This document shows, one piece after another, positions 33,986-57,822 of a stretch of 64,000 bases of DNA. The number at the start of each line of letters is the position of its first letter. Position 1 is the stretch's first letter. The position numbers and the translations under genes are program-made. The notes under the pieces are model-generated. The model did not search any database, was not told where the DNA came from, and worked only from the letters and a program-made list of their open reading frames with translations. The stretch is from Escherichia coli (GTDB lineage: Bacteria > Pseudomonadota > Gammaproteobacteria > Enterobacterales > Enterobacteriaceae), in the NCBI RefSeq assembly GCF_030384885.1, contig NZ_CP128613.1; one strand, 5' to 3'.

Positions 33986-36229
33986 TTAGAAACGGAAGGT
34001 TGCGGTTGCAACGACCTGACGTTCTGCGCCCCAGAAGCAGCCATAGGTGTTAAAGCAGCTGGCGACGTATTCACGATCGAACAGGTTGTTAACATGCAGC
34101 GCCACGTTGGAGCCCGCCATGCCGACTCGCGCCAGATCATAACGCACTAACGCATCCACGACCGTATAACTTCCCACTTTAAAGGAGTTAGCCGGATCAC
34201 CATAGCTGGAGCCAGTATAACGACCACCGGTGCCCAGCGTCAGACCTGAAAGCGGACCGTCAAAGAAGGTATAGTCAGCCCACAGCGAAGCCATGTGTTT
34301 TGGCAGCTGTGCAGGCGTATTGCCTTTATAGGTAGTGTCGGTGGTGTATTCCGCATCGGTGTAAGTATAAGAACCTACTACGTTAACACTCGCCGACAGC
34401 GCCGCTTTCGCTTCGATTTCTACGCCACGAGCGCGGATCTCGCCACCTTCAACCGAGAAGAAGGAACCCTCAGGGTCCGCCATCAGGTTGTTGGTTTTAG
34501 TGAGATTATACACAGCACCAGTAACCACAATTGGGCGATCTTCCGGTACATATTTCACGCCGACCTCATACTGCTTACCTTTAGACGGCGCAAAAATATT
34601 ACCATCCTTCCCAACTTGTGAAGAAGGTTCAAACGATTCGCTATAGCTGAAGTAAGGTGTTACACCATTATCAAACAGGTAGTTAACACCACCACGCCAG
34701 GTAAACTGTTTGTCATCACGTTTATCGGTCGTCCCTTCAACGCGGTTATGAGACTCTTGATCCGCCCAGTCATAACGACCGCCCAGGGTGACCAGCACTT
34801 TATCCCACTGCGCCTGATCCTGAACATAAACACCCGTTTGTTTCTGCTTATTCAAAATGCGGTAAGGACCGGAGTTTGCCGGATCTTTCGCATTGAAGTC
34901 GAAATCGGTATTCACCGGATTGTACAGATCGAGCAGCGGTACGGAGTCGTCGTAACCAAACCAGGCGTTGATGTCATTACGCATACGCATAAAGTCGACA
35001 CCGGTCAGCAGAGTGTGGTCGATATCGCCAGTGGCAAACTTGCTCTGCAACTGGGTATCAACGGAGAAGTTTTGCAGCTTCTCATCATCAACGACGTATT
35101 TACGTGCCAGGTAGTGACCTTTATCGGCTGGCGCTAAAGCGGCACACTGTTTGCTGTAAGCATTCGCCGGATCGGAGCAGACGCCGTAACCATAAACGCT
35201 GTTTTGCGAGGTTTTGTTTTCAGCAAAGCGCAGGTTCTGACGCACAGTAAAGGTGTCGTTAAATTCGTGATCGAAGCTGTAGCCCACCATCTTCTCATTA
35301 CGAGAATAGGTGTTGTTCTTCGCCCCTTCGTTAAAATCTGTCGGCAGACGCTTACCGTTCGGCAGCGGCTCAACGGTTCCCTCTTTCGGCAGCCAGCCGT
35401 AATAACCGGTTTCCGGCTCGTTCTGGAAGTAAGAAAGGAAGGTGAAATTGGTTTTATCATCCGGACGCCAGGTAAACGCTGGCGCAATGGCATAACGCTG
35501 CTCTTCCGCGCCCTTTTGCTGGGCATTGGCAGAGCGCGCCAGTCCGGTCAGACGATAAGAGTAAACGCCATCATCATCCAGCGCATCGCTAAAGTCGAAA
35601 CCGGTCTGGAACAGGCTGTCTGTGCCCGCTTTAAATTGGATTTCTTTCAGCGGTTCGGTGGTTGGGCGCTTGCTGACCATATTTAACAGGCCGCCAGGGC
35701 TACTTTTACCGTAAAGAACAGAAACAGGGCCACGCATAATTTCAGCGCGTTCCAGCATATACGGGTCAATAACTGCATCGTTATAGAAGTTGCCTTGCAA
35801 CTTCAGACCGTTGAGATAGTTATTCTGGCTTTGGCCTTCTGCTGCAAAACCACGAATAATCAAATGATCATAAGTGTTTGATGCACCACGCGTACCGACC
35901 GAAACGCCTGGCGTATAGCTAAGCGCTTCTTTTACTGACTTAGGCTGATGCAGCGCCATTTCTTCGGCGGTCACAACAGAAATTGACTGCGGCACTTTTT
36001 GAATCGGTGTATCGGTTTTGGTGCCGGTAGCGGACTGTCGCGCCGCAATAGTTGCAGCTGGCCCCCATGCGCTTTCTTGCGGCGCTGGTGCAGCGGTAAC
36101 GGTGATAGTGTCTTCTTTCGGTTCAACCGCTGCCTGTGCGTAAACAGACATGCCGCTAACCGCTGTGGCTACTACAACTGCAATTTTACGCAGTGAGTGT
36201 TTTGGCTGAGCAGTTTTGGAACGCGCCAT
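33986..36229 (-). CDS. fhuA: TonB-dependent ferrichrome outer membrane receptor FhuA
   Basis: Track ORF 33986..36355; start placed at MARSKTAQPKHSLRKIAVVVATAVSGMSVYAQA (747 aa); C-terminal ...ATATFRF beta-barrel terminus. Confidence 0.95.
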   Translation of the reverse strand: MARSKTAQPKHSLRKIAVVVATAVSGMSVYAQAAVEPKEDTITVTAAPAPQESAWGPAATIAARQSATGTKTDTPIQKVPQSISVVTAEEMALHQPKSVKEALSYTPGVSVGTRGASNTYDHLIIRGFAAEGQSQNNYLNGLKLQGNFYNDAVIDPYMLERAEIMRGPVSVLYGKSSPGGLLNMVSKRPTTEPLKEIQFKAGTDSLFQTGFDFSDALDDDGVYSYRLTGLARSANAQQKGAEEQRYAIAPAFTWRPDDKTNFTFLSYFQNEPETGYYGWLPKEGTVEPLPNGKRLPTDFNEGAKNNTYSRNEKMVGYSFDHEFNDTFTVRQNLRFAENKTSQNSVYGYGVCSDPANAYSKQCAALAPADKGHYLARKYVVDDEKLQNFSVDTQLQSKFATGDIDHTLLTGVDFMRMRNDINAWFGYDDSVPLLDLYNPVNTDFDFNAKDPANSGPYRILNKQKQTGVYVQDQAQWDKVLVTLGGRYDWADQESHNRVEGTTDKRDDKQFTWRGGVNYLFDNGVTPYFSYSESFEPSSQVGKDGNIFAPSKGKQYEVGVKYVPEDRPIVVTGAVYNLTKTNNLMADPEGSFFSVEGGEIRARGVEIEAKAALSASVNVVGSYTYTDAEYTTDTTYKGNTPAQLPKHMASLWADYTFFDGPLSGLTLGTGGRYTGSSYGDPANSFKVGSYTVVDALVRYDLARVGMAGSNVALHVNNLFDREYVASCFNTYGCFWGAERQVVATATFRF

Positions 36230-36371: not shown

Positions 36372-36419
36372 TCAAAAAATGTTAATGATTGCACTGCAAA
36401 GTAAAACCACATTAACATT
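36372..36419 (-). terminator. Terminator-like hairpin between the accessory adhesin gene and fhuA
   Basis: AATGTTAATG ... CATTAACATT 10-bp inverted repeat (22-nt loop) followed on the minus strand by a TTTTTT run; AT-rich stem so predicted stability is modest. Confidence 0.45.
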
Positions 36420-36443
36420 TATGAAATAGGAGTCAGGGAAAGC

Positions 36444-37454
36444 TTATCGATAATACACTTCAAAGGTGGCGACAGAATTAACCAGACCACTTTTTACATT
36501 ACCCGTTTTGATATAACGCGCCTTTAATGGGATGTTAACATTTTGATTTAAAGTGGTTTTTTCGATAACAGTATACTCTGTATCAAATGCTATAACATTG
36601 TTATTACTGTCCAGGATCTGCAGGCCAACACCTTCCGCCATCCCCGATCCAGACTCAATATTGAGAATATTATTACTCGTTATCCCCGTGGATCCTGCGG
36701 AGGTGAAACGGTAATCAACCTTTACATCCTGGGAACAATTTTCAATATGAATTGAAAACCTATCATCAGAAACTACAGGTGACACATTGTTAACATCAAA
36801 ATCATCTGTTCCGATATCATCGAGTGGAACGGTAATATTCTTGTTAATAAGATCACATGTCCCTGGTATAATATTTACCGGCACAGAAATAAAACGAAGC
36901 TGTCCTATAACAAGATTGTCATACTTCCAGTCAGCAACTAATTTACTGGTGTCAATGACTCCATTACCGACAGGCCCTGTCACAACAAACTGAATAGCTG
37001 CATGTATTTTTATCGGATAAACATATCCTCTATTCACTATTGACGAGCCTTTATGCCATGGTGTTATTAAATAACCTGAGGTGAGTTGCGCATTAACGTT
37101 ATTCGCCCATGCAGCACGAAAACCAATCCCTGGAACATTCGTCTGAAACACATCATGAAGGGGGTTATCGGTACGCAAATCGCTATTTGTCAAGACGGTA
37201 AACCCTTGCCAAATGTCACCATTCGCCGAGCAGGAAACTGAAATTGAATTACTAGTAGCTTCGAGTGTGGTAATAATCGTTCCCGGCTCTGCATCGTTAT
37301 TAACATCTAACGCTGGAACTGAGAATTCTATTTTTGCCGGATTTCCCCCATTTCCCGAAATGCTGCAACCGGCGAAAGCCTCAGGAATGGCAACTAAGGC
37401 AAGAAATATTATAGTCAGTAATATTTTTACATAAGAGAAAAATCCTGGCTTCAT
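36444..37454 (-). CDS. Fimbrial tip adhesin (two-domain: N-terminal receptor-binding domain plus C-terminal pilin domain) of accessory chaperone-usher operon
   Basis: Track ORF 336 aa; signal peptide MKPGFFSYVKILLTIIFLALVAIPEAFA; C-terminal pilin-like region with Cys pair and terminal ...SVATFEVYYR beta-strand; last gene after the usher. Confidence 0.75.
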   Translation of the reverse strand: MKPGFFSYVKILLTIIFLALVAIPEAFAGCSISGNGGNPAKIEFSVPALDVNNDAEPGTIITTLEATSNSISVSCSANGDIWQGFTVLTNSDLRTDNPLHDVFQTNVPGIGFRAAWANNVNAQLTSGYLITPWHKGSSIVNRGYVYPIKIHAAIQFVVTGPVGNGVIDTSKLVADWKYDNLVIGQLRFISVPVNIIPGTCDLINKNITVPLDDIGTDDFDVNNVSPVVSDDRFSIHIENCSQDVKVDYRFTSAGSTGITSNNILNIESGSGMAEGVGLQILDSNNNVIAFDTEYTVIEKTTLNQNVNIPLKARYIKTGNVKSGLVNSVATFEVYYR

Positions 37455-37475
37455 TATTCATTCATGTCCTGTTTG

Positions 37476-39950
37476 TTATCGGCACTCTATTGTGGCCTTA
37501 TAGATACCTTTGGTATATGTTTCTGGCACAGCTATAATCCCTGTACATTGCTGATTGTTCTCTTTTCCCCACTGTACCGTAAATGACATGGCATTTTGCA
37601 CACCAGTAATATAAACCTCACCATCCTCACCGACAATTGATGTACTATCCCCTAATGTCAGCAATGATCCAAAGGGTACGTATTCTTTATCGTGGAGCAA
37701 TGTCAATAATGCTCTCATACCATTACGTGCTTTAAAATTGACACCAACGACGGCACCTTTCGAAGGAATAACATCTTGTGTTGCATCAACGATATCAAGA
37801 TTATCGTGCCCCTGAGTATTTACCGTAATGGTGTTATGTCGATAATTTGTCATATTAGGAATAATCGCGTTCCCCCAATAATCAGTATAAACTCCCTGCG
37901 CATTTTGTACTTTTACATTAGCACCATCATCAATATGCACAATCGCGAATGAATCCTGTACTGATTGCCCTAATGTTACTCCATGAGTATGCGCAACCAC
38001 CGCACCTTGTGCGCTATAATTCCATTGTCGACTATTTTTATCATAGTTATATCCCAGACCAAACTCGCCTACTGAACTACGATAACGTCCATTTATACTG
38101 GCACCATAACCCACGTTATTATCGGCATAAGTTTGTTGTAAATTATAGCTAAGGTTATTATCTTGCAGAGCAGTTCCAGCAATACCCATTTGATGAGAGG
38201 TATTACCTTTGTCTGAACGATTTGCATTATACGTCGCCCATGCCCCCGGCAACCAGCGAGACAGAGGAATATTGATTGACAATGAAAATTGCTGCTCACC
38301 AGCCATTCCAGGCATATCTGTCAGTGCGTAATTAACAGACCAGCTAATATCACTCCAGCTAGTACTATAACCCATTCCTATGCTGCGTTCGGATCCTTGC
38401 ATTCCCCAATAATCTTGTTGATAACCATTAAGATAGATCGATCCCCAACGACCTATATTTTGCGAAAGATTAATTTGCAAATGGTTACGTCTATTATTGG
38501 TCTGGCGATAACTATAAATACTCTTATCATCAGGAATATCACGTTGATCAAGTGCCTCCTGAAAAGTATAAAATTGCGATGTTGAATAACGATAGCTTGC
38601 CAGATTTAATGTCGTATCAGTATCTGGAAAATCTTTCGAATACATTGCACGCCATGACAGTCCAGTTGCATCATTGTGTTCTTCAAGTTTCGTATTTGCT
38701 GCTGTGATATCAATAGAAACCGATCCCAGGCGGCCTAAGTCAGCACCAATTCCGGTCACACCAGAACGGTACATGGAGGCTCCAAGTATGCCACCATAAA
38801 TCGTTATTCCATAAGGCAAACCATATATCGCTGTTGCAACCCCAAAAACAGGTTGCTCTGATTTATTATCACTGTCACGATATTTTCCAGCAGCAACACT
38901 ATATTTTAATGCGTTTTCTCGCTGTAGGATTGGAACCGCTGAACTAGCCTGAATAAAGCTGTGTTCTTGTCCATTTGTTTCCTTGATGGTAACGTCCAGA
39001 TCGGCCCCTGCCGTTACCTGGTTTAAGTCTTTAATTTCAAATGGCCCTGCTGATACCCATGTTTGGTAAATGACATAGCCATTCTGTTTAATCACAACTT
39101 GTGCGTCGCTATTTGCAATACCACGTACTACAGGCGCAAAGCCTTGTTCACTCTCAGGCAACATACTGGTATCAGTTTCAAGTTTTATACCTGTCATTTG
39201 CACACTATCAAAAAGTTCACCATTCGTGAAAGTTTGCCCGACTTCCATCTGGCTACGTAATATTTTGATATCACGTTGCAAACTGGTGCTAATCGAATCC
39301 CAATTGGAGCCACTATAAACAGTATTATTACGTAACCGCCATACACCTAAATTCACACCTGAGTTTAAATTCAACCAATTTGAGTTCAGGTTATCACCAT
39401 CACTATTTTGTTGAGAACCACTGACATAATAACTTAACCAGGCAGCACTATCGCCATCATTCCAGTATTTTGGTGAAATACTCCCTATGGCTCTTGAATT
39501 CTGATAAATTTGAGGAATTTGCAGCCGCAGTGTTTGACTATCTAGCTGGAAGTCATAACGTGCGCCATCAATAATCTGTGAAATATCGCCAACCTCAGCG
39601 TCATCATCCATTACTTGTAACGCAGGAATGGCACCCACGTTAAGTCCTAGCTCACCGAGATCTGCCTTTGTAAAACGAGGGATAAGTTTTTTTTTGTCTG
39701 AAGAAAGAATGAACGTAATGTTTCTCTTATCAAGATATTCTTGCCCCCACATTACAGAGGTAAGATAGACACCTGGCGTTAGATTGTTATTATTAATAAA
39801 CTCTTCCAGCACTTTTGTATTTTCAAGCGGACTATCCAACTCCAGGATACGTAAGTTAAATTCATCTCGTGCATAGCTCAATGAATACACTGTAGATAGC
39901 GCAAGCGCTACTCCAGTTAAAACAAATGTACAATGCAGTGGTAGCGGCAT
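37476..39950 (-). CDS. Fimbrial usher (outer membrane assembly platform) of accessory operon
   Basis: Track ORF 824 aa; size and composition typical of FimD/PapC-family ushers; positioned between chaperone and adhesin. Confidence 0.85.
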   Translation of the reverse strand: MPLPLHCTFVLTGVALALSTVYSLSYARDEFNLRILELDSPLENTKVLEEFINNNNLTPGVYLTSVMWGQEYLDKRNITFILSSDKKKLIPRFTKADLGELGLNVGAIPALQVMDDDAEVGDISQIIDGARYDFQLDSQTLRLQIPQIYQNSRAIGSISPKYWNDGDSAAWLSYYVSGSQQNSDGDNLNSNWLNLNSGVNLGVWRLRNNTVYSGSNWDSISTSLQRDIKILRSQMEVGQTFTNGELFDSVQMTGIKLETDTSMLPESEQGFAPVVRGIANSDAQVVIKQNGYVIYQTWVSAGPFEIKDLNQVTAGADLDVTIKETNGQEHSFIQASSAVPILQRENALKYSVAAGKYRDSDNKSEQPVFGVATAIYGLPYGITIYGGILGASMYRSGVTGIGADLGRLGSVSIDITAANTKLEEHNDATGLSWRAMYSKDFPDTDTTLNLASYRYSTSQFYTFQEALDQRDIPDDKSIYSYRQTNNRRNHLQINLSQNIGRWGSIYLNGYQQDYWGMQGSERSIGMGYSTSWSDISWSVNYALTDMPGMAGEQQFSLSINIPLSRWLPGAWATYNANRSDKGNTSHQMGIAGTALQDNNLSYNLQQTYADNNVGYGASINGRYRSSVGEFGLGYNYDKNSRQWNYSAQGAVVAHTHGVTLGQSVQDSFAIVHIDDGANVKVQNAQGVYTDYWGNAIIPNMTNYRHNTITVNTQGHDNLDIVDATQDVIPSKGAVVGVNFKARNGMRALLTLLHDKEYVPFGSLLTLGDSTSIVGEDGEVYITGVQNAMSFTVQWGKENNQQCTGIIAVPETYTKGIYKATIECR

Positions 39951-39991
39951 AAATTCCTTTTCGCCCTGGTATGAAAATACAATTAAGCGGT

Positions 39992-40708
39992 TTATAGTTT
40001 TTGTTGACGTTTCCCTGAACTTGAACCATAGTCAGTTATCACCGACCACTCAACAACACTACCTGCTCCAGCAGGAAGACTAAACCGATTCTCAGAAAAT
40101 GGACCAACCATCATCGACAATGCACCAGGTTCAGATTTCTCCTCGACAGCAGTAATGCTCTTACCTGATACTGTTAGCTCATTAAATGAAATATAAAAAG
40201 GCGTTGGATTTTTTACTATGAGCCTCCCTGATTCTTTATGAAATTTAAGTTTTTCCCATGCAGTTAAAGCGTCGCTATTACTCAAAGAATCTGGTCGCCA
40301 AAATAACTTAAGCCGTACTTTCATTGCAAATTGCAAGGTGTTTTTATCTTTTAGCTCCTCCGGCATAGCAGAAATAGATTTTATATTTGCTAAAAACAAA
40401 CTTTCTCTATCTTGAGGAAGGCTTTCTTTATTTCCTGTAAATACAACATGGAGTAGTGTTTGACGGTTTTCCTCAAGTTTATAAACGGGAGGCGTGATGA
40501 GAAAAGGGGCTTTAGAACCATCAATATTACTCACCCAACTTTGCACGAGATAACGAGCATGTGCGTCTTTATTCTTTAATGTAATTTGAACTTCATTTTG
40601 ATTTGAAGGATAGACAATGCGTGTACCACCAAGTACAACACCTGCTTGTGCTTGTATTGCAGTGAGAAGAAATGTAAATCCTAAAAAGAATCGATAAGAT
40701 ACTGACAT
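39992..40708 (-). CDS. Periplasmic fimbrial chaperone (PapD/FimC family) of accessory operon
   Basis: Track ORF 238 aa; signal peptide; GGTRIVYP... N-terminal motif typical of PapD-like chaperones. Confidence 0.85.
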   Translation of the reverse strand: MSVSYRFFLGFTFLLTAIQAQAGVVLGGTRIVYPSNQNEVQITLKNKDAHARYLVQSWVSNIDGSKAPFLITPPVYKLEENRQTLLHVVFTGNKESLPQDRESLFLANIKSISAMPEELKDKNTLQFAMKVRLKLFWRPDSLSNSDALTAWEKLKFHKESGRLIVKNPTPFYISFNELTVSGKSITAVEEKSEPGALSMMVGPFSENRFSLPAGAGSVVEWSVITDYGSSSGKRQQKL

Positions 40709-40753
40709 AAATAACCCTCCATGGTCAGATAGTCCTTCAATACACTATAAATA

Positions 40754-41320
40754 TTACCGATAGAAGACTTCAAACGTCGCAGATGAAGCATATTTCCCCG
40801 CAGTTGGCGGGTTATTACCAATCTGGATGACATTAGCAGTATAATTAAATATCGTGGGATTTACATCGCCAGCATTATCAACATCAGTGGATTCATCAGG
40901 GACAGAACCATCAAATTTTACACTACTTGTTCCGCCATTTTTATTTGTTACCGTAATACCCACATTTGTTGCACTACCCGCAGCAGTTTCGCTATTTTCA
41001 AGGCGAAGAGAACCAGTATCCGTTGTGGTTCCAGAAAATGTCAGGTTTAGTTTTGTAACCAATGGATCACACTTTAGCAACTCAATCTTAAAATCTTTTG
41101 AAGTCCCAATCGTACCATCCCCGGTATAGTCCGCAGGGTAAGTATCTGCAAAAGTCACCGTGCCTGTCGTACTACTAGAATCATTGACATTGATTTCGCA
41201 GGTATCAGCAACAATTTTACCATTGAAGTTAACAATCCCAGTATCTACAGCAAATACACTCGTACTTACTGCTGCCAGGAAAGTTCCTGACGCAAATAGA
41301 GAAAGCAATTTTTTATTCAT
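40754..41320 (-). CDS. Major fimbrial subunit (pilin) of accessory operon
   Basis: Track ORF 188 aa; signal peptide MNKKLLSLFASGTFLAAVSTSVFA; conserved Cys pair (DTCEIN ... LLKCDP); C-terminal SATFEVFYR; first gene of operon. Confidence 0.8.
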   Translation of the reverse strand: MNKKLLSLFASGTFLAAVSTSVFAVDTGIVNFNGKIVADTCEINVNDSSSTTGTVTFADTYPADYTGDGTIGTSKDFKIELLKCDPLVTKLNLTFSGTTTDTGSLRLENSETAAGSATNVGITVTNKNGGTSSVKFDGSVPDESTDVDNAGDVNPTIFNYTANVIQIGNNPPTAGKYASSATFEVFYR

Positions 41321-41653
41321 AAAAATCCCTTAATTATGAGTCAATAAAGCATGATTCCATTCCAGAGAGGCTGGGCAGGACTTGATAAATATTGATAATA
41401 TAAATATATGCAAATAATAAAATTATTTTAGATTAGAGCAAAAAACACATTACATGTCTATACGACATATAATAAAAAGGTTACAACCATCTGAAATTTA
41501 AAGATTTGTTCTTATTCTCAAAAATATAAAATCATAAATTAAAAATATAAATTCACCCCATTAGATTCATTAAATAAATACTTATTATATTTATCTATAT
41601 AACGTCATAGTAATCTATTACGCTCTCCGCATCAGCGGAGAGCTATTACGATA
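41321..41653 (-). promoter_or_regulatory. AT-rich control region upstream of accessory fimbrial operon (promoter expected here), including a perfect stem-loop next to the mrcB stop
   Basis: 333-bp strongly AT-rich non-coding stretch with many A/T tracts; 10-bp inverted repeat CGCTCTCCGC-atca-GCGGAGAGCG near 41623..41646; no promoter elements could be assigned with confidence. Confidence 0.4.
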
Positions 41654-44188
41654 TTAATTACTACCAAACATATCCTTGATCCAACCTGCTACGCCGTCAC
41701 TGTCTTTCTGCTCTTGCTGATCAGGTTGCTGTTGCGGCTGTTGCTGCGGCTGAGAAGACTGATCAAACGGATTGCCTGACGGTTGCTGCTGCATCTCACT
41801 CTGCTGGCACAGCGATTGCGGATCGCTGGTCCAGACCGGTAAGACACGCATGCCACCGCTGCAGACAAAGTTGCCGTCGTAGTCCACGCCCATATCAGCA
41901 ATGTCTTCTGGCGGAACAAGATTCAGCGGTGTTGGCGTCTGGTTAGCCAGATAACGCTGATAAATCGACATTGCCCCACTGGCACCATACAGTTTGGTCG
42001 GCTGGTTGTTATCACGGCCTACCCAGGTGATGGTCACCGTGCTGCCGTCAATGCCCGCAAACCAGGTATCCACGTTGTTGTTGGTAGTCCCGGTTTTGCC
42101 CGCCAGATGCAGGTTCGGGTATTTCGCCCCAAGCTGACGACCCGTACCGCGTTGTACCACCTGCTGCATGGTCCATAGTGTCAGATACGCCGCCTGCGCC
42201 GGAACCGCGCGTTCCGCCTGCGGGAAGCTCTGATACAGCACCTTGCCATCTTCCGCAATTACCGAACGCAGCGCAGAAAGTGGTGCACGGTTACCGCCGC
42301 TGGCGATGGTCTGGAAAGCCTGCGCCACTTCGATTGGCGTTAAGTTCAACGCCCCCAGCAGCATTGCCGGAACCGGATGCAGCTGATCTTTCGGTACGCC
42401 CAGTTTAATCCAGGTATCCGTAACCGCAGGCAGCCCCAGCGCCATCCCCAGATTTACCGTCGGCACGTTCATCGAACGAGTCAACGCATCCACCAGCATC
42501 ACTCTGCCACTTTCGCTATAACGACGATCATCGTTCTGCGGTGACCAGACCTGACCGTTCGGCTGACGCAGCGCGATTGGCGCATCGGCAATCCACGTGT
42601 TCAGGCGATAGATTCTCGGCTGGCTTAAGGCCGTCAGATAAGTCGCTGGTTTTGCAAGGGAACCAATCGAACGACGCGCCTGCATCGCACGGTTGTAACC
42701 TGCAAACTGCGGCTCAGAACCACCAACCATCGCGCGAACTTCACCGCTAAAGCGGTCGACAACCACGATTGCCGTTTCCAGATCGCTCAGCTTTCGCTGT
42801 TTCTTCAGCGCCGGAATACCCTCCACGGCGGCTTTTTCTGCCGCGTCCTGGGCCACCGAGTCAAAGGTAGTGAAGATCTTCACGCCGGAGAGATCTTTCA
42901 CTTTATCGCCCAGTTTCGCCTGTAGCTCCTGACGCACCAGTTGCATAAAGGCTGGCTGTGGAGAGATTACCCCACCACGCGGCTGAACCCCCAGCGGACG
43001 CGCGCTGAGCATTTCATACAGTTCGCCGTCGATAATCTGTTGCTGTTGCAGCAGACGCAGTACCAGATTACGTCGCTCCAGCGCCAGTTTCGGGTTACGC
43101 CACGGATTGTAGATGGACGCCCCTTTCACCATACCCACCAACAGCGCCTGCTGGTCGAGGCTCAATTCTTCTACCGGGCGACCAAAGTAATACAAGCTCG
43201 CCAGCGGGAAGCCGCGGATTTCGTTGTCGCCGCTCTGACCGAGATACACCTCGTTCATATACAGCTCAAGAATACGGTCTTTGCTGTAACGCGCGTCCAT
43301 GATCAGCGCCATGTAGGCTTCGTTCGCTTTACGCCAGTAAGAACGCTCGCTGGAGAGGAACAGGTTTTTCACCAGCTGTTGCGTCAGCGTACTCGCCCCC
43401 TGCACCGTGCGTCCGGCGGTCAGGTTTGCCAACACCGCACGTCCGATGGAGTAGAGACTGATCCCATCATGCTCGTAAAAATGACGGTCTTCTGTTGCCA
43501 GCAAAGTATCCACCAGCAGATCCGGGAAACCACTGCGCGGCACAAACAGACGTTGCTCACCGTTTGGCGAAGAGATCATGGTGATCAGACGCGGATCAAG
43601 ACGGAAGAAACCAAACTGACGGTTGTTCTCCATATTGACGATCGTCGCCAGATGATCGCCATCAAAGGTCAGACGCGCACGCACCTGTCCTTCTTTGCTG
43701 TCCGGGAAATCAAACGGACGACGGATCATCTCAATGCTGTTGGCCTGCACGGTAAATTCGCCAGGGCGCGTCATTTTCGACACCTGACGATACTGGGTCG
43801 CCTCCAGCAGCTTCACCATCTCGTTTTTGCTGATGGTCATGTCTGGCTCAAGGTTGACCATTCGGCCATAAACAGCCGCAGGCAATTGCCAAACTTTGCC
43901 ATCAATACGGCTACGAATTTTTTGATCGAGATAAACACCGTAAATGGCGATCAGCACGGCAAAAACGATAGCCAGTTTTAGCAGCAGCCATAGCCAGCCG
44001 CGTTTGCCACGAGGCTTACGCCCTTTGCCTTTGCCCTTACCTTTGCGCGGCATCGGTTCTTCATCCTCATAGTCATCATAATCGTCGTAATCATCGTCAT
44101 CTTCGTAACGACGACGGCTTACCTTTTGTTTGACCGGACGCGTCGGTTTCCCTTTGCGTCCAATTGGCTCGCGGTCATTCCCGGCCAT
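41654..44188 (-). CDS. mrcB: Penicillin-binding protein 1B (bifunctional glycosyltransferase/transpeptidase)
   Basis: Track ORF 41654..44203; start placed at [22 protein letters not shown] (844 aa); acidic [15 protein letters not shown] tract. Confidence 0.95.
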
Positions 44189-44281
44189 GCTTTTTCTCCG
44201 CAATATTCAGGCGCAAAAGCCCGATTTTCTGTTCTTCTGTAACAAGACAGAAGAAGATATCTCTCAAATTTACTTTGGTCT

Positions 44282-46711
44282 TCATGAATACTTTTTCGTC
44301 CGTCGCGTCGGTGCGGTATTTGCCGGATCATCCGGCCAGACGTGTTTGGGATAACGCCCTTTCATCTCTTTTTGCACCTCGCGATACGCTCCTTTCCAGA
44401 AGGCGCTCAAATCTCGTGTGATTTGCAGCGGCCTTTGGGCAGGAGAAAGCAACTCCAGCACCAGCGGCACGCGCCCCTGGGCGATCGTCGGATTGGTGGC
44501 CTCGCCAAACATCTCCTGCATTCTCACCGCCAGCGCGGGCGGGTTATCTTCATGGTAACGAATGGCGATCCGGCTTCCCGTCGGCACAGTGTAATGCGCA
44601 GGCAATTCACTATCCAGACGTTGCTGCATCCCCCAATCAAGTAATCCGCGTAGCGCCTGATAAATATCGAGTGATTTCAGGCCGCGTAGCGAATGTACGC
44701 CTGTCATATGCGGCAGGAGCCACGTTTCCAGCGTCGCCAACAAACTTTCATCATCAACCGCTGGCCAGTCATATTCCGGCAACCACTTTGCGGCGCATAA
44801 CAAACGCAAGCGTAGCTGTTCCGCTTCCGCCGTCCAGTTGAGCACGCTTAAACCTTTATCACGAATGCCGTTAAGCATCGCCTGATGCAACTCGTCTTCC
44901 GAGGGTTTCGCCAGCGGCTGCACTTTCACCGTCAAATGACCGATTTGCAGCCGACGCCACGCTTTCAGCGTACCTTGCGCGTCATCCCACTCCACAGTGT
45001 CAGACTGCTGTACCAACTGCGGACAGCGTTGTACTAATTCATCGATATCGACCGGTAGCGCCAGTAAAATCCGCGCATCCGGCGAGGCGCTGCCCTGCAA
45101 TAATAACGGTGCGATCAACCATTCGTGGCGGCTGAGCGCATCATCGGCATCGAGCATTGCCCCCATGCCGTTTGCCAGTTGATAGCGCCCCTCTTGCCCA
45201 CGGCGGCGAGCGATGCGATCGGCAAACGCTCCGGCAAGTAACGGTGCGATAAGCGAACTGTCTGCCTCACCGCCGCGTACGTTTAAGCGCTTTAACAGTT
45301 GCTGGCTACGTTGCTGCCAGGCAGGTTGATTGCGCGAAAACGCCACGCCCAGATCGATATTGCCCATCCGTGGTGGCTCTTCGAGAATAGCGGCAATTTT
45401 TGCAGCGGTAGCAGCTTCGTCGTCGCTCTTTGCGCTCACCAGCATTGCCGCTAAACGCGGATCGTTACCCAGCGTCGCCATTTTCTGCCCTTTCGTGCTT
45501 AGCCGTTCACCGTCCATCGCCCCCAGCATCCGCAACAGGCGTTTCGCGGCCTGTAAATTCACGGCTGGCGGTTGATCCAGCCAGCTCATCTGCGTCGGAT
45601 CGCTGCATCCCCATTGCAGTAATTCCATCAGCAAACCGGAGAGATCGCTTTGTAATATTTCTGGTTCACTTTGCGCGGAGGCGCGTTCTGCTTGTTCTTT
45701 GGCGATTAAATGTAAACAGATCCCCGGCTCCAGACGTCCGGCACGCCCGGCGCGTTGCGTCATTGATGCCTGGCTAATGCGTTGGGTAATCAGCCGCGTT
45801 AGCCCCGTGCGCGGATCAAAGCGCGCCACACGTTCCTGAGCACAATCCACCACCAGACGAATACCTTCGATGGTTAAACTGGTTTCAGCAATATTGGTTG
45901 CCAGCACCACTTTGCGCATCCCTTCTGGTGCCGGAAGGATCGCTTTTCGCTGATCGTTCAGCGACAACGCGCCATACAGCGGGCAGAGCAACACATCACT
46001 ACCGATGCGCGAAGCCAGTTGTTCCTGAACGCGCTGAATTTCTCCGACACCAGGTAAAAATAACAGTAATGAGCCGCTTTCCTGATGCAGCAATTCGGCG
46101 GTGGCAACCGCCACGGCTTCATCAAAACGCTGATGAGCGAGCAGCGGTAAATATCGGCGTTCAACCGGAAATGAGCGCCCTTCTGAGATGACGACGGGCG
46201 CTTCTGGCAGCATCTGCTGCAAGCGGTCATTGTCCAGCGTAGCCGACATAATCAGTAGTTTAAGGTCATCACGCAGACCTTGTTGCACATCGAGTAACAG
46301 CGCCAACGCCAGATCCGCCTGCAAGCTGCGCTCATGAAACTCATCGAGGATCACCAATCCAACGCCGCTCAGTTCAGGGTCACGCTGGATCATGCGCGTC
46401 AACACGCCTTCGGTAACTACTTCCAGGCGAGTATTTGCCCCGACACAGTTTTGCGCGCGCATCCGGTAGCCTACCGTATCACCTGTTTTTTCGTTAAGCA
46501 GTTCCGCCAGTCGTTGCGCAACGTTACGCGCCGCCAGGCGACGCGGCTCCAGCAGGATAATTTTTCCGTTAATGCCGGGATGCGCCAGCAGTTGCAGCGG
46601 CAGCCAGGTTGATTTCCCGGCCCCGGTCGGCGCACTTAATAACACCTGCGGTGCACCATCGAGGGCAGCAAGTAACTCAGGTAAGACGGCGGCAACGGGC
46701 AACGACGACAC
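44282..46711 (-). CDS. hrpB: ATP-dependent RNA helicase HrpB (DEAH-box); probable GTG start
   Basis: Track ORF 44282..46756; GAGKST Walker A and DEFH box; start placed at in-frame GTG giving MSSLPVAAVLPELL (809 aa as I recall). Confidence 0.88.
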   Translation of the reverse strand: MSSLPVAAVLPELLAALDGAPQVLLSAPTGAGKSTWLPLQLLAHPGINGKIILLEPRRLAARNVAQRLAELLNEKTGDTVGYRMRAQNCVGANTRLEVVTEGVLTRMIQRDPELSGVGLVILDEFHERSLQADLALALLLDVQQGLRDDLKLLIMSATLDNDRLQQMLPEAPVVISEGRSFPVERRYLPLLAHQRFDEAVAVATAELLHQESGSLLLFLPGVGEIQRVQEQLASRIGSDVLLCPLYGALSLNDQRKAILPAPEGMRKVVLATNIAETSLTIEGIRLVVDCAQERVARFDPRTGLTRLITQRISQASMTQRAGRAGRLEPGICLHLIAKEQAERASAQSEPEILQSDLSGLLMELLQWGCSDPTQMSWLDQPPAVNLQAAKRLLRMLGAMDGERLSTKGQKMATLGNDPRLAAMLVSAKSDDEAATAAKIAAILEEPPRMGNIDLGVAFSRNQPAWQQRSQQLLKRLNVRGGEADSSLIAPLLAGAFADRIARRRGQEGRYQLANGMGAMLDADDALSRHEWLIAPLLLQGSASPDARILLALPVDIDELVQRCPQLVQQSDTVEWDDAQGTLKAWRRLQIGHLTVKVQPLAKPSEDELHQAMLNGIRDKGLSVLNWTAEAEQLRLRLLCAAKWLPEYDWPAVDDESLLATLETWLLPHMTGVHSLRGLKSLDIYQALRGLLDWGMQQRLDSELPAHYTVPTGSRIAIRYHEDNPPALAVRMQEMFGEATNPTIAQGRVPLVLELLSPAQRPLQITRDLSAFWKGAYREVQKEMKGRYPKHVWPDDPANTAPTRRTKKYS

Positions 46712-51886: not shown

Positions 51887-51910
51887 ATGGAATATGATTC
51901 AAGGATTTTT

Positions 51911-52495
51911 ATGTCTAAAAAATTAGGTTTTGCGCTCTCTGGTCTTATGCTGGCAATGGTTGCAGGTTCCGCTTCTGCTGATATGGACGGTGGTCAGTTA
52001 AATATCAGTGGTCTGGTTGTTGATAATACCTGTGAAACCCGCGTAGACGGCGGTAACAAAGATGGCCTGATCCTGCTGCAAACTGCAACCGTTGGAGAAA
52101 TCTCTGAGGGTGTGCTGGACACTACCGTTGGTGCTAAAGCTAAACCATTCAGCATTACTGTTGACTGTAGTAAAGCTAATCCGGCACCAGGCAGCACAGC
52201 AAAAATGACTTTCGGTTCAGTCTTCTTTGGTAACAGTAAAGGAACGCTGAATAATGATATGTCAATTAATACGCCATCGGACGGTGTTAATATTGCTCTG
52301 CACAATATCGAAGGTTCTGCTATCAAACAGGTTAAAATCAACAACCCTGGCGATATCTATTCCAAAGCACTGGATGCAACTTCTAAATCCGCAACTTATG
52401 ACTTTAAAGCATCTTATGTTCGTGCAGATGCGAGCCAACCAGGCACTGCTGGTTATGTGAAAACTAACACTGCATATACCGTTACTTATCAGTAA
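51911..52495 (+). CDS. yadN: Fimbrial major subunit YadN
   Basis: Track ORF 51887..52495; start placed at [24 protein letters not shown]-terminal ...TAYTVTYQ. Confidence 0.85.
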
Positions 52496-52591
52496 GCATT
52501 TCCATCCATATTCATGAATTGAATACATACAGGGAATAATATTGATATTTCATACTACTCCCTGTTTTTTTAACTCTGCCAGGAATGGTTT

Positions 52592-53332
52592 ATGTTTTTC
52601 AACACTAAACATACAGCAGCATTATGCTTCGCAACCTGTGTAGCTTTTAGCTCATCAGCTATAGCAGATATCGTAATTTCCGGTACACGCGTAATCTATA
52701 AAAGCGACCAAAAAAGTGTCAGCGTTCGTCTGGAAAATAAAGGCAATAACCCATTACTTGTTCAAAGTTGGCTGGATACCGGCGATGACAATGCTGAGCC
52801 TGGCAGTATTACCGTCCCCTTTACTGCGACTCCGCCCGTATCACGCATTGATGCAAAACGCGGCCAAACTATCAAACTGATGTACACCGCCAGTAGCGTC
52901 CTGCCAAAAGATAGAGAAAGTGTGTTCTGGTTTAACGTACTGGAAGTTCCTCCAAAACCAGATGCCGCAACAGCTACAAATCAAAGCCTGCTGCAGTTGG
53001 CATTTCGTACCCGTATCAAATTGTTTTATCGCCCTGAAGGGTTAAAGGGCAATCCGTCTGACGCGCCGTTAGCACTTAAATGGTCATGGGCAACTGCGGG
53101 AGGCCAAACAGCTTTGCAAGTAACAAACCCTACGCCTTATTACGTCTCATTTAGCAGTGGTGATTTAGAAACCAGCAGCAAGCGCTATCCACTCGACGTA
53201 AAAATGATTGCGCCATTCAGTAACGATGTCATCAAAGTGAACGGTATGAGTGGCAAATCAAGCTCTGCAAAAGTTCATTTCTACGCCATTAATGATTTTG
53301 GCGGAGCCATAGAAGGCAATGCAACTCTGTAA
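52592..53332 (+). CDS. yadV: Fimbrial periplasmic chaperone (EcpD/YadV)
   Basis: Track ORF 246 aa; PapD-like (ISGTRVIYKSDQKSVSVRLEN). Confidence 0.85.
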   Translation: MFFNTKHTAALCFATCVAFSSSAIADIVISGTRVIYKSDQKSVSVRLENKGNNPLLVQSWLDTGDDNAEPGSITVPFTATPPVSRIDAKRGQTIKLMYTASSVLPKDRESVFWFNVLEVPPKPDAATATNQSLLQLAFRTRIKLFYRPEGLKGNPSDAPLALKWSWATAGGQTALQVTNPTPYYVSFSSGDLETSSKRYPLDVKMIAPFSNDVIKVNGMSGKSSSAKVHFYAINDFGGAIEGNATL

Positions 53333-53367
53333 TCAGGCAAGGGATATTACGCAGCAGGAAGCGAAAC

Positions 53368-55965
53368 GTGCAAAAAATAACAATAATTCATCCTCATAAC
53401 CTCACGCAGATCGCTACGCTTTGTGCGCTGCTTTATAGTTCCTTTAGCATAAGTGCTGAACACGTTGAATATGACCATACCTTCCTGATGGGGCGTGATG
53501 CTTCAAATATCGACCTTAGTCGGTACAGTGAAGGTAACCCTACGCTACCCGGTATTTACGACGTAAATGTTTATGTTAATGATCAACCCGTCATTAACCA
53601 AAGTATCCCTTTTGTCGTTATTGACGGGAAGAAAAATGCCCAGGCTTGTATCACCCAAAAGAATATATTGCAGTTTCACATTACCCAACCAGATATTGAT
53701 AGTGAAAATGCGGTACTACTCGAGCGAGATGAAGAGCTCGGTGATTGCCTCAATCTAACCGAAATTATCCCGCAATCATCTGTGCGTTATGATGTGAATG
53801 ATCAACGACTGGATATTGATGTCCCACAGGCATGGGTCATGAAAAATTACCAAAACTATGTTGATCCGTCATTATGGGAAAATGGTATTAATGCTGCCAT
53901 GCTTTCATATAACGTTAATGGTTATCACAGTGAAAGCCCTGGCAGAAAAAATGACAGTATTTATGCCTCATTTAATGGTGGTGTGAATTTAGGCGCATGG
54001 CGAATGCGCGCTTCAGGTAACTACAACTGGATGAACGATTCTGGTAGCGATTACAACTTTCAGAATCGGTATCTGCAGCGCGATATTGCATCACTACGTT
54101 CGCAATTAATTATTGGTGAATCCTATACCACCGGGGAAACTTTTGATTCCGTCAGCATTCGTGGCGTTCGCTTATACAGCGACAGTCGGATGCTTCCCCC
54201 TGCATTAGCCAGTTTTGCTCCGGTTATTCATGGTGTCGCCAACACTAACGCAAAAGTGACTATCACTCAGAGCGGTTATAAGATCTATGAAACAACAGTA
54301 CCACCAGGCGCATTTACTATTGATGATCTCAGTCCATCAGGCTATGGCAGCGACCTCATTGTCACAATTGAAGAGGCTGATGGCTCAAAGCGGACTTTCT
54401 CTCAGCCATTTTCATCGGTAGTGCAAATGCTACGACCTGGCGTTGGTCGCTGGGATATTAGTGGTGGTCAGGTATTAAAGGACGATATTCAGGATGAACC
54501 TAATTTATTTCAGGCCAGCTACTACTATGGCCTAAACAACTACCTGACCGCGTATACAGGTATTCAGCTCACCGATAATAACTATACTGCCGGATTACTG
54601 GGACTTGGTTTAAATACGTCCCTGGGTGCTTTTTCTTTCGATGTCACTCACTCCAATGTCCGCATCCCTGAAGATAAAACATACCAGGGGCAGAGCTATC
54701 GTTTATCGTGGAACAAATTATTCGAAGATACCAGTACGTCGCTAAATATCGCGGCCTACCGCTATTCAACGCAGAATTATCTTGGTCTTAATGACGCTTT
54801 AACACTCATTGATGAAGTGAAGCATCCAGAGCAAGAGCTTGAACCGCAATCCATGCGGAATTACTCGCGCATGAAAAATCAGGTTACGGTCAGTATTAAC
54901 CAACCGCTGAAATTTGAGAAAAAAGATTACGGCTCCTTTTATCTTTCAGGAAGCTGGTCCGACTATTGGGCTTCCGGCCAAAATCAAAGCAATTATTCCA
55001 TTGGCTACAGCAATAGTGCCTCCTGGGGCAGCTATAGCATTAGTGCTCAGCGTTCCTGGAATGAAGATGGTGAAACCGATGATAGTATCTATCTCAGTTT
55101 CACCATTCCAATTGAAAAACTCCTGGGGACAGAACACCGTGATTCAGGTTTCCAGAATATTGACACTCAGCTAAACAGCGATTTTAAAGGTAATAATCAA
55201 CTAAATATCAGTAGCAGTGGTTACAACGATAACAATCGCATCAGTTACAGCGTGAATACTGGCTATACGATGAATAAATCCACCGATGATTTAAGTTATA
55301 TCGGGGGTTATGCCAGTTATGAATCCCCATGGGGAACATTGGCCGGTTCGGTTTCCGCAAGTAGTGATAATAGCCGTCAGTTTTCGCTCAATACCGACGG
55401 GGGTTTTGTGCTACACAGTGGAGGCCTCACATTCAGTAACGACAGCTTTAGTGATTCCGACACTCTGGCAGTGGTTCAGGCCCCCGGAGCAAAAGGCGCC
55501 CGTATCAACTACGGTAATAGCACTGTAGATCGCTGGGGCTATGGCGTAACCAGCGCCCTGTCGCCATATCATGAAAACCGCATCGCTCTGGATATTAACG
55601 ATCTTGAGAACGATGTTGAATTGAAAAGTACCAGTACTGTTGCCGTACCGCGTCAGGGCTCTGTCATCTTCGCTGGTTTTGAAACGGTACAGGGGCAATC
55701 AGCGATTATGAATATTAAACGTAGCGACGGTCGTAACATTCCATTTGCTGCGGATATTTATGATGAGCAAGGCAATAATATTGGAAATGTCGGCCAGGGC
55801 GGGCAAGCTTTTGTACGTGGTATCAGTCAACAGGGTAATATCCAGATTAAATGGCTCGAAGCAGGTAAGCCCGTAAATTGCCTGGCCCATTATCAACAAA
55901 ACGCAGAAGCAGAAAAGATCGCACAAACGATTATCATCAATGGAATTAATTGTCAGATTCAGTAA
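53368..55965 (+). CDS. htrE: Fimbrial usher HtrE
   Basis: Track ORF 865 aa; usher-family size and composition; operon position. Confidence 0.9.
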   Translation: MQKITIIHPHNLTQIATLCALLYSSFSISAEHVEYDHTFLMGRDASNIDLSRYSEGNPTLPGIYDVNVYVNDQPVINQSIPFVVIDGKKNAQACITQKNILQFHITQPDIDSENAVLLERDEELGDCLNLTEIIPQSSVRYDVNDQRLDIDVPQAWVMKNYQNYVDPSLWENGINAAMLSYNVNGYHSESPGRKNDSIYASFNGGVNLGAWRMRASGNYNWMNDSGSDYNFQNRYLQRDIASLRSQLIIGESYTTGETFDSVSIRGVRLYSDSRMLPPALASFAPVIHGVANTNAKVTITQSGYKIYETTVPPGAFTIDDLSPSGYGSDLIVTIEEADGSKRTFSQPFSSVVQMLRPGVGRWDISGGQVLKDDIQDEPNLFQASYYYGLNNYLTAYTGIQLTDNNYTAGLLGLGLNTSLGAFSFDVTHSNVRIPEDKTYQGQSYRLSWNKLFEDTSTSLNIAAYRYSTQNYLGLNDALTLIDEVKHPEQELEPQSMRNYSRMKNQVTVSINQPLKFEKKDYGSFYLSGSWSDYWASGQNQSNYSIGYSNSASWGSYSISAQRSWNEDGETDDSIYLSFTIPIEKLLGTEHRDSGFQNIDTQLNSDFKGNNQLNISSSGYNDNNRISYSVNTGYTMNKSTDDLSYIGGYASYESPWGTLAGSVSASSDNSRQFSLNTDGGFVLHSGGLTFSNDSFSDSDTLAVVQAPGAKGARINYGNSTVDRWGYGVTSALSPYHENRIALDINDLENDVELKSTSTVAVPRQGSVIFAGFETVQGQSAIMNIKRSDGRNIPFAADIYDEQGNNIGNVGQGGQAFVRGISQQGNIQIKWLEAGKPVNCLAHYQQNAEAEKIAQTIIINGINCQIQ

Positions 55966-55980
55966 CCACAAGGGCTCCAC

Positions 55981-56556
55981 ATGATAAAAATGACACCATA
56001 TAAATTGACAATACTGATGGGTATATTATTTTCACCTTCAGTATTTGCTACAGATATTAATGTTGATTTCACCGCAACGGTGAAGGCGACAACCTGTAAT
56101 ATTACTCTCACTGCACTGAATGGCTCAAGTGTTACAGATGATGGTAACGATAATTACATACTACGTATACCTAATATGGGGTTGGATAAAATAGTTAATA
56201 AAACAGCCGAAGCCCAGGCAGACTTTAAACTGATCGCCAGTGGTTGTAGCGGTGGCATCAGCTGGATTGATACAACGCTGTCAGGGAATAAGTCTGGCAG
56301 CTCCCCAAAATTGATAGCGCCATTATCATCAGACACATCCTCAACAACCAGCTATATTGGTATGGGAATTAAAAAAATAAATACTGATGATTCTACATTT
56401 CTGACCCCTAACAGCGCAGAGAAAATTCGCTGGAGCCTGACAGAAATCAATACAGACGGTCTCTCAATGACCGTTGCATTGCGTGAAACAGGTACAGGTC
56501 AAGGCATACCAGGTAATTTTCGTGCTAAGGCAACTTTTAATTTCACCTATCAATAA
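55981..56556 (+). CDS. yadM: Fimbrial minor subunit YadM
   Basis: Track ORF 191 aa, signal peptide, C-terminal ...ATFNFTYQ; exact start uncertain. Confidence 0.8.
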   Translation: MIKMTPYKLTILMGILFSPSVFATDINVDFTATVKATTCNITLTALNGSSVTDDGNDNYILRIPNMGLDKIVNKTAEAQADFKLIASGCSGGISWIDTTLSGNKSGSSPKLIAPLSSDTSSTTSYIGMGIKKINTDDSTFLTPNSAEKIRWSLTEINTDGLSMTVALRETGTGQGIPGNFRAKATFNFTYQ

Positions 56557-56570
56557 CAAGGATGACAATA

Positions 56571-57176
56571 ATGATGTATAAAAAATTACGTTATGGATTA
56601 TCCGTAAGTATGATTCTTGCTGCATCCCAGTTAGTCGCGCCATCCTATGCGGCTACCGACAGTATCGGTCTGACAGTCGTTACCACTGTTGAGACTGGGA
56701 CTTGCGATGCACAACTGGTTAATGATAGCAATCAACAAATTTCTGCGGTGGATTTTGGCGATGTTTATATTTCTGAAATCGATAAAAAATTAAAAATTAA
56801 GACTTTCAAATTACAGTTTAAAAACTGCGCGGGTATTCCCGGGAAAAAGGCTCTGATAAACCTGACCAAACGCGCAACTTGCGAAGGGACCAGTAATGAC
56901 GGAGCAGGTTTTGCAAATGGTTCTACAGGTACCGGCAAAGCAAGCGCCGTTGTGGTAGAAGTCTGGAACACCACTGTACCTGCAACGGGAAGTGCGGCTC
57001 CATTTAGCTGTGCAGCACCGGCAAATAAAGAGGTAATTATTGCCTCCGCCACAGGTAATAACGTAGTGGACTATCCGATGAGCGCCCGTCTGGTGGTTGA
57101 TAAAGATAAAACTGTCAGCGACGTTACCGCTGGCACATTTTCTGCACCAGCAACATTTACCGTGACTTACAACTAA
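56571..57176 (+). CDS. yadL: Fimbrial minor subunit YadL
   Basis: Track ORF 56562..57176; start at MMYKKLRYGLSV assumed; C-terminal ...ATFTVTYN. Confidence 0.78.
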   Translation: MMYKKLRYGLSVSMILAASQLVAPSYAATDSIGLTVVTTVETGTCDAQLVNDSNQQISAVDFGDVYISEIDKKLKIKTFKLQFKNCAGIPGKKALINLTKRATCEGTSNDGAGFANGSTGTGKASAVVVEVWNTTVPATGSAAPFSCAAPANKEVIIASATGNNVVDYPMSARLVVDKDKTVSDVTAGTFSAPATFTVTYN

Positions 57177-57201
57177 CTGGTCGCCATATCAGGTACTTAC
57201 T

Positions 57202-57798
57202 ATGCATCCCACCCAACGTAAAATGACGAAGAAAACAGGTTTATTTCTGTCGTTAATATTATCAATGATACACCCCGTCATGGCGGGAATGGATATTGAT
57301 ATGACGGCTAATGTCAAAAATAGCACCTGCAAAAGCGGAATTAGCAATCAAGGTAATATCGATCTTGGCGTCGTCGGTGTGGGATATTTTGCCGGTAATA
57401 CCTCTGCTGAAGACCATCAACCTAGCGGAAAAGAATTTACCATCACGGTGACAGACTGTGCATTTCAGGGAACAGGAGATGTACTCAATCAGTTGCATAT
57501 TGAATTCCGCCCTCTTAGCGGTGTAATGGCAACAGGCTCTAGGCAAATATTTAATAATGAGAACGTCTCGGGGGCCAGTAATGTTGGCGTCGTTATCTTT
57601 TCTATCCAGGACCCGGCAAACACCTTCAATGTTCTGAATACAGCTGGCATTTCTCGTTCAATTTATCCGGTGATGTCATCAGAGATGAATAACTCATCCT
57701 GGAAATTTTATACCCGAATGCAAAAAGTTAACCCAGCACTTAACATTACATCCGGTCAAGTCAAAAGTACTGTACTGGTCGACGTCTACTATGAGTAA
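57202..57798 (+). CDS. yadK: Fimbrial minor subunit YadK
   Basis: Track ORF 198 aa; C-terminal ...VLVDVYYE. Confidence 0.8.
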   Translation: MHPTQRKMTKKTGLFLSLILSMIHPVMAGMDIDMTANVKNSTCKSGISNQGNIDLGVVGVGYFAGNTSAEDHQPSGKEFTITVTDCAFQGTGDVLNQLHIEFRPLSGVMATGSRQIFNNENVSGASNVGVVIFSIQDPANTFNVLNTAGISRSIYPVMSSEMNNSSWKFYTRMQKVNPALNITSGQVKSTVLVDVYYE

Positions 57799-57822
57799 CC
57801 TCTAATATAAGAAGATAATAAT

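Follow-up and report, generated by a model that had tools for sequence, protein, structure and literature searches.

A 'sporadic' fimbrial type of the gamma* usher clade was described by Wurpel et al. in 2013 and was named for the SE15 usher ECSF_0165; the same type was recorded in EC958 (_0295) and E2348/69 (_0155) (PMC3559732). The operon was named ushABCD by Stubenrauch et al. in 2017, who studied the TAM-dependent folding of UshC and reported that ush occurred in ST131 and EPEC, was mutually exclusive with Yra and showed pseudogenisation (PMC5717340). Their description of the Ush-clade adhesins went no further than a Phyre2 resemblance to LpfD or CupB6 (PMC5717340). In transcriptome work on EPEC, Ler raised the expression of E2348C_0153 4-5-fold, and Hfq acted as a repressor of this gene. 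More is known about the adhesins Abp1D and Abp2D, in both of which a C2-C48 disulfide is present and a mobile anterior loop borders a large distal pocket (Tamadonfar et al., PMC9942807). R86 lies at the base of this pocket; binding was abolished by the exchange R86E and likewise by the analogous R105E in MrkD, and many glycoproteins were bound by the Abp adhesins via the large open pocket (PMC9942807). In the literature searched, which comprised cataloguing, usher-folding and transcriptome papers, no report of the receptor, adhesion phenotype or structure of UshD or of the assembly of Ush was found. To that extent the preliminary description of the present locus was right to call the binding specificity of its adhesin uncharacterised.

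The locus analysed here lies in a window of 64,000 nucleotides (the whole stretch of DNA that was analysed), to which all coordinates refer. Four intact, co-oriented genes were found on the minus strand in the order pilin-chaperone-usher-adhesin. They were flanked on one side by the promoter region of fhuA and on the other by the mrcB stop codon with its terminator hairpin (visible in the sequence at 41622-41643). They were ushA for a major pilin of 188 aa (40754-41320; ORF and NCBIfam pilin matches), ushB for a periplasmic chaperone of 238 aa (39992-40708; NCBIfam chaperone matches), ushC for an outer-membrane usher of 824 aa (37476-39950; full-length NCBIfam usher matches) and, as the last gene, ushD, which is encoded together with its cognate chaperone and usher on the same strand. 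NCBIfam assigned an equivalog to none of the four proteins, every score lying under the curated cut-offs; the best match of UshC was LpfC-like (2.5e-204, under the equivalog cut-off).

The mrcB-fhuA site and the gene order were the same as in SE15, ST131 and EPEC E2348/69. By gene count in SE15, 13 genes from the Yad usher ECSF_0152 lead to the mrcB-fhuA usher, which is ECSF_0165. UshC showed 86% amino acid identity to the SE15/ST131 usher versus 39% to YraJ, UshB was 87% identical to the ST131 allele, and UshD was 82% identical to UshD of ST131/SE15 (WP_001295784.1), both proteins having 336 aa and aligning without gaps. Among the top matches in AFDB was B7UIJ6 of E2348/69, with a TM of 0.98 and 79% identity in the receptor-binding domain (RBD); it was taken as the UshD of that strain because its accession adjoins that of UshC, B7UIJ5. 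The operon is the Ush fimbria (ECSF_0165-type, gamma*), which is already catalogued. Any novelty of the operon had to be given up, since it has been described as ECSF_0165/Ush in ST131, EPEC E2348/69 and SE15.

The GC content of the ush block was 0.35-0.42, versus 0.52-0.59 in the flanks, and because of this difference the block was regarded as a small horizontally acquired island. The low-GC island (window positions 36400-41650) had sharp borders and lay exactly in the space that separates the fhuA promoter from the mrcB terminator. On the basis of sequence and a GC content of 0.35-0.44, the AT-rich region upstream of the operon (41321-41653, minus strand) was presumed to contain the promoter and to be an H-NS target. 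A promoter scan of the operon gave 20 versus 19.9 in shuffles, i.e. not above chance, and did not find the promoter position; a terminator scan gave 4 versus 3.7 in shuffles, with only the mrcB hairpin visible. By gene numbering, E2348C_0153 is ushA. The results on Ler and Hfq were obtained for the EPEC operon, which is 82-86% identical, and not for that of this strain. Activation by Ler and repression by Hfq in EPEC fit an H-NS-silenced, AT-rich fimbrial operon. By analogy, H-NS probably keeps the ush operon silent until antagonists, Ler for instance, lift the repression.

The start of ushD was located just 21 nt past the stop of ushC. In this interval (37455-37475), two short out-of-frame ATGs were observed ahead of the ushD start and behind an AGGA that resembles a Shine-Dalgarno sequence. 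The out-of-frame ATGs and the 21-nt spacing in the DNA suggest a tight translational arrangement of the two genes. A complete Yad fimbrial operon of seven genes (yadN to a 426-aa YadC-like adhesin; 51887-59103) was observed on the opposite strand 10 kb off, so that the 64-kb window carries two chaperone-usher systems. The nearby core Yad operon was presumably the reason why the ush operon had been labelled 'accessory' before. In the same window, yadE (62659-63888) is a pseudogene with an internal stop according to the RefSeq source genome and appeared as a 409-aa ORF in the program-made list.

A single ORF on the minus strand, made up of 336 codons and the stop (36444-36446), filled the coordinates 36444-37454 exactly, which agreed with the bounds called before and supplied the strand, unstated until then. 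From the ORF, the RefSeq CDS and the AlphaFold2 (AF2) model, ushD was annotated as encoding the 336-aa precursor of a two-domain tip adhesin. The product was 100% identical to RefSeq WP_000802257.1, named 'fimbrial protein', from the human stool isolate E. coli 2013C-4282. Residues 1-28 (MKPGFFSYVKILLTIIFLALVAIPEAFA, followed by G; 37371-37454, minus strand) were assigned to the signal peptide by sequence inspection: the N-terminus looked Sec-like, with K2, K10, a hydrophobic core and A-F-A/G after residue 28, in keeping with the signal peptide claimed in the preliminary description. In the AF2 model these residues formed a low-confidence helix apart from both domains. There were four cysteines in total, one pair per domain, namely C30 and C75 in the N-terminal and C200 and C240 in the C-terminal domain. 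The strings GCSISGNGG, SVSCSANGD and ATFEVYYR, quoted before from the translation, were all located in the 336-aa product. The richness of the N-terminal domain in Asn, Ser, Thr and Gly, pointed out at the same time, was indeed present but was not specific to it, since these residues made up 35% of both domains.

The AF2 model of full-length UshD, computed from a 22-sequence alignment, had a mean pLDDT of 90.4 and showed two separate beta domains; the RBD modelled alone reached a pLDDT of 96 and a pTM of 0.88. The RBD comprised residues 29-199 (36858-37370, minus strand; MrkD-like, with Cys30-Cys75) and was joined directly to the pilin domain, residues 200-336 (36447-36857, minus strand; assigned by PF00419, phmmer and Foldseek), which contained Cys200-Cys240, ended in the strand ATFEVYYR and carried no N-terminal extension. 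Pfam Fimbrial (PF00419) matched residues 194-335 with an E value of 2.5e-15, which bore out the C-terminal pilin-like domain with a Cys pair that had been proposed. When the full-length model was compared with the PDB by Foldseek, the top matches were the two-domain tip adhesins CupB6, FimH, FocH, LpfD and PapG; Abp1D, Abp2D and MrkD1P were also retrieved, as isolated binding domains, and the pilin domain matched FimA with a TMt of 0.6-0.8. With phmmer, whole UshD against PDB sequences gave pilin-domain relatives (FimA, FimF and FimI chains) over residues about 183-336 and no match over residues 29-190; because of this blank, a family profile was required for the N-terminal domain. The AF2 model, the Foldseek matches and the operon order thus agreed with the earlier view of the product as a FimH/PapG-type two-domain tip adhesin encoded by the last gene of a chaperone-usher operon. 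Structure prediction had been checked for a single pilin fold and gave two beta domains instead; near-identity to a characterised adhesin was also looked for, and identity of the UshD RBD to any solved adhesin domain was just 15-16%.

An exhaustive HMMER search with UshD residues 29-200 against 1.84 billion cluster representatives returned 29 proteins at E<=1e-3, and a word-indexed homologue search with the same domain returned just 3. The resulting clade was small, with members in Escherichia, Enterobacter (E. mori, strain SA187) and Chimaeribacter/Nissabacter, all of them named merely 'fimbrial protein'. A profile of 21 N-terminal domains (A2) was built and compared with the PDB, where it matched the RBDs of MrkD1P (3U4K) at 1.7e-11, Abp1D (8DF0) at 3.7e-11 and Abp2D (8DEZ) at 2e-9. 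The Pfam family MrkDrd (PF22003) matched 18 of the 21 relatives at E<=1e-3, with 2.6e-12 as the best value. UshD by itself was matched weakly by this model (E of 5.7e-4 for the domain and 0.0028 for residues 51-122, with about half of the model covered), and therefore its membership in PF22003 is based on the profile of the family together with the predicted fold. Abp1D and MrkD1P were the nearest solved folds, and the predicted RBD agreed with the folds of the MrkD and Abp domains. Homology to the lectin domains of FimH (mannose) or PapG (Gal-Gal) was tested for the N-terminal domain and was not found.

The likeness extended to details of the scaffold. The disulfide between mature C2 and C47 (C30/C75 of the precursor) paralleled that of C2-C48 in Abp, and the core motif Y-x-T-N-x-P-G-I-G-x-R was common to UshD, Abp and MrkD in the HMM alignment. 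C30/C75, T105 and G109 were invariant or near-invariant among the relatives, and the scaffold Y/F-x-T-N-V-P-G-I-G-x-R, C47 and G132 were nearly invariant across all 21. Judged by profile and predicted fold, the N-terminal domain of UshD is a divergent MrkD-like RBD of PF22003 and not an orphan fold. The idea that this domain can be related to nothing known was therefore replaced by membership in the MrkD-like family.

The core motif of UshD (TNVPGIGFRAAW, residues 105-116; 37107-37142, minus strand) was defined from the translation, the HMM alignment and the column composition. Two HMM alignments set the register, one with Abp2D in its wild-type form (PGIGIRLYREAEN) and one with the sequence of the R86E crystal (PGIGIRLYEEAEN). 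UshD reads PGIGFRAAWANN here, and W116 (37107-37109) fell in the column of Abp R86 and MrkD R105, so that the arginine of the family at the pocket base is replaced by tryptophan. The pocket comparison is a sequence-profile alignment in which loop regions were aligned at low confidence; the Abp2D pocket residues Y100 and R102 aligned to non-identical UshD residues in such a low-confidence loop. Over the 21 relatives, the R86 column contained W in 12 and S in four, the rest having R, F, Y or D. One relative (P0019) was the sole one with Arg in the W116 column, reading R-V-V-R as in MrkD and Abp. As read from this alignment, the pocket-base residue switches repeatedly inside the small UshD family. 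Because the scaffold was near-invariant while the R86 column varied, the W116 column fits a specificity-determining position.

The Arg-to-Trp change concerns ligand specificity and leaves fold membership untouched. Because the essential pocket-base arginine is Trp in UshD, and this Trp is conserved in the UshD clade, the specificity of UshD probably differs from that of the collagen-binding MrkD and the fibrinogen/N-glycan-binding Abp adhesins. We infer that UshD uses the distal site equivalent to that of MrkD and Abp with another ligand preference. As a tentative extension, it is possible that the UshD clade forms a distinct specificity class of MrkD-like adhesins, in which the Trp in place of Arg, beside a clade-specific P-W-H motif, would point to aromatic stacking on carbohydrate in place of the acidic or glycoprotein recognition seen with MrkD and Abp; the receptor might be an unrecognised intestinal colonisation ligand, a suggestion made because pandemic ST131 carries Ush and so does EPEC, in which Ler activates it, and with the rare allele described below the range of hosts or tissues might be shifted.

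Of 5426 complete E. coli genomes, 2 contained the ushD allele of this window (>=99% identity), and in another 562 the same site was occupied by the ST131/EPEC-type allele, with 83% nucleotide and 82% amino acid identity to it. Divergence from the ST131 allele was operon-wide, with dS values of 0.60-0.84 and amino acid identities of 82-87%, and the flanking mrcB and fhuCD had dS values of 0.15-0.30. The dN/dS of ushD versus the ST131 allele was 0.19 in the RBD and 0.10 in the pilin domain, and that of ushA, ushB and ushC was 0.10-0.13. From dN/dS values of 0.10-0.19 it was concluded that the gene is maintained by purifying selection. In the RBD, 34 substitutions in 171 residues were scattered over other strands and loops, and the pocket strand (mature residues 82-90) was unchanged between the two alleles. 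The adjacent fhuA (33986-36229) was also observed to be divergent from ST131, with 90% amino acid identity, a dS of 0.64 and a length difference of 2 codons, and fhuC and fhuD beside it showed 99% amino acid identity and dS values of 0.15-0.25; fhuA and ush form a hyper-divergent block. One possibility for fhuA is receptor diversity driven by phages or colicins.

The mrcB-hrpB segment (42000-46700) was just 94-95% identical at the nucleotide level to 5113 of the 5426 complete genomes and >=99% identical to one, that of 2013C-4282. The 90% protein cluster of UshD included members from 'Escherichia sp.' isolates. Because of these two observations, the host was assigned to a divergent Escherichia lineage, and to judge by these identities the DNA of the window appears to stem from a divergent or cryptic Escherichia lineage that bears the label E. 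coli.

It is highly probable that UshD is the tip adhesin of the Ush fimbria, with an RBD of the MrkD/Abp type that is predicted to bind at the distal pocket of the family. According to general chaperone-usher biology, the precursor would be exported by Sec, its incomplete C-terminal pilin domain would be captured by the chaperone UshB, and UshD would reach the usher UshC before any other subunit. The first UshA would then supply its N-terminal extension to complete the UshD pilin domain, a donor-strand role that is assigned on the same general grounds, and UshD would end up at the distal tip of the UshA polymer. The N-terminal RBD is computed to be a 171-residue, disulfide-clamped beta-sandwich of the MrkD/Abp1D/Abp2D type. 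In this family the ligand site is a distal pocket made of the strand following PGIG and the mobile 'anterior' loop, and UshD would bind a glycoprotein or glycan of the host or the environment at the equivalent site.

A tip adhesin of this kind might retain the ligand class of its nearest relatives, i.e. collagen IV/V, fibrinogen and N-glycans, and serve mainly in biofilm formation on conditioned surfaces. MrkD1P and Abp1D/2D are both the nearest folds and the profile matches, they have the scaffold motif and the disulfide in common with UshD, and the Abp adhesins accept many glycoproteins in their large open pocket. We nevertheless hold this to be rather doubtful, because the identity is just 15-16%, the binding Arg of both MrkD and Abp is Trp in UshD, and the columns of Y100 and R102 are non-identical, albeit in a low-confidence loop. 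That UshD is an LpfD-type or F17G/GafD-type lectin appears improbable, although Phyre2 suggested LpfD for some Ush-clade adhesins (PMC5717340) and F17 has the identical four-gene A-chaperone-usher-G layout. With the F17-like UcaD and UclD, the A2 profile gave values of 0.004 to about 1. That UshD is an ordinary structural or minor pilin without a separate binding domain is scarcely credible. The database names 'major type 1 subunit fimbrin' and 'type 1 fimbrial protein' would agree with it, and the phmmer and NCBIfam matches are to FimA, FimF and FimI only, within residues about 183-336; but at 336 aa the protein is twice the length of a pilin, and AF2 gave a separate, confident N-terminal domain of 171 residues that resembles adhesin RBDs. 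With this length and this domain, the pilin reading was refuted computationally.

It could also be argued that the operon is a silent or decaying acquired relic, with a UshD that is intact yet seldom, if ever, produced and that plays no part in the tropism of this strain. The low-GC island is compatible with such a relic, and the type was termed 'sporadic' by Wurpel et al. (PMC3559732), with pseudogenisation noted later (PMC5717340). Insertions of IS1, IS4/ISEc13 and IS903/IS903B were observed in the orthologous ush operons of several strains, and truncations of UshD were common in other genomes, e.g. a 226-aa form on 66 contigs; because of both, ush was considered to be decaying in some lineages. 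For the present strain, however, this explanation is unlikely: all four genes are intact, dN/dS values of 0.10-0.19 over a dS of about 0.6 correspond to long-term purifying selection, and the EPEC orthologue responds transcriptionally to Ler and Hfq.

By its architecture, UshD is a genuine two-domain tip adhesin whose operon and domain family are already known, and what is new here is the rare allele. For this window, the annotation 'fimbrial protein' can be upgraded, as a matter of routine, to that of a UshD tip adhesin with a MrkD-like RBD, encoded by a rare allele. What goes beyond routine is solely the exchange of Arg for Trp at a key pocket position, which provides a specific hypothesis for experiments. 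The specificity of an adhesin determines where a strain can settle, and the common ush allele occurs in ST131 and in EPEC strains like E2348/69, two lineages of medical importance. Placement with MrkD and Abp gives a concrete predicted site, made up of the distal pocket, residue W116 and the loop after it, and templates are at hand in the Abp/MrkD RBD constructs, glycan arrays and charge-swap mutants.

Compared with known systems, UshD has the two-domain tip-adhesin architecture in common with FimH and PapG, and its N-terminal Cys pair is as in FimH. By its usher, the operon is closest in E. coli to the Yra fimbriae (K-12 yraHIJK), which belong to the gamma* clade and have a four-gene layout like ush. 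YraK was considered as a relative of UshD and rejected, as BLASTP gave no significant alignment despite the sister usher clade. The binding domain is nearest to other systems. The RBD of MrkD1P from Klebsiella type 3 fimbriae (3U4K) is 16% identical to that of UshD, binds collagen and has R105 where UshD has Trp; the mrk operon, unlike ush, contains the additional minor subunit MrkF and a gamma4 usher. The Acinetobacter baumannii RBDs of Abp1D and Abp2D (8DF0, 8DEZ) are about 15% identical to that of UshD, their ligands are fibrinogen, collagen IV and the NA2 N-glycan, and their systems have gamma4 ushers, versus gamma* for UshD. Because the Ush usher is gamma* and LpfC-like whereas those of the MrkD and Abp systems are gamma4, the adhesin and the usher of this operon differ in their nearest relatives.
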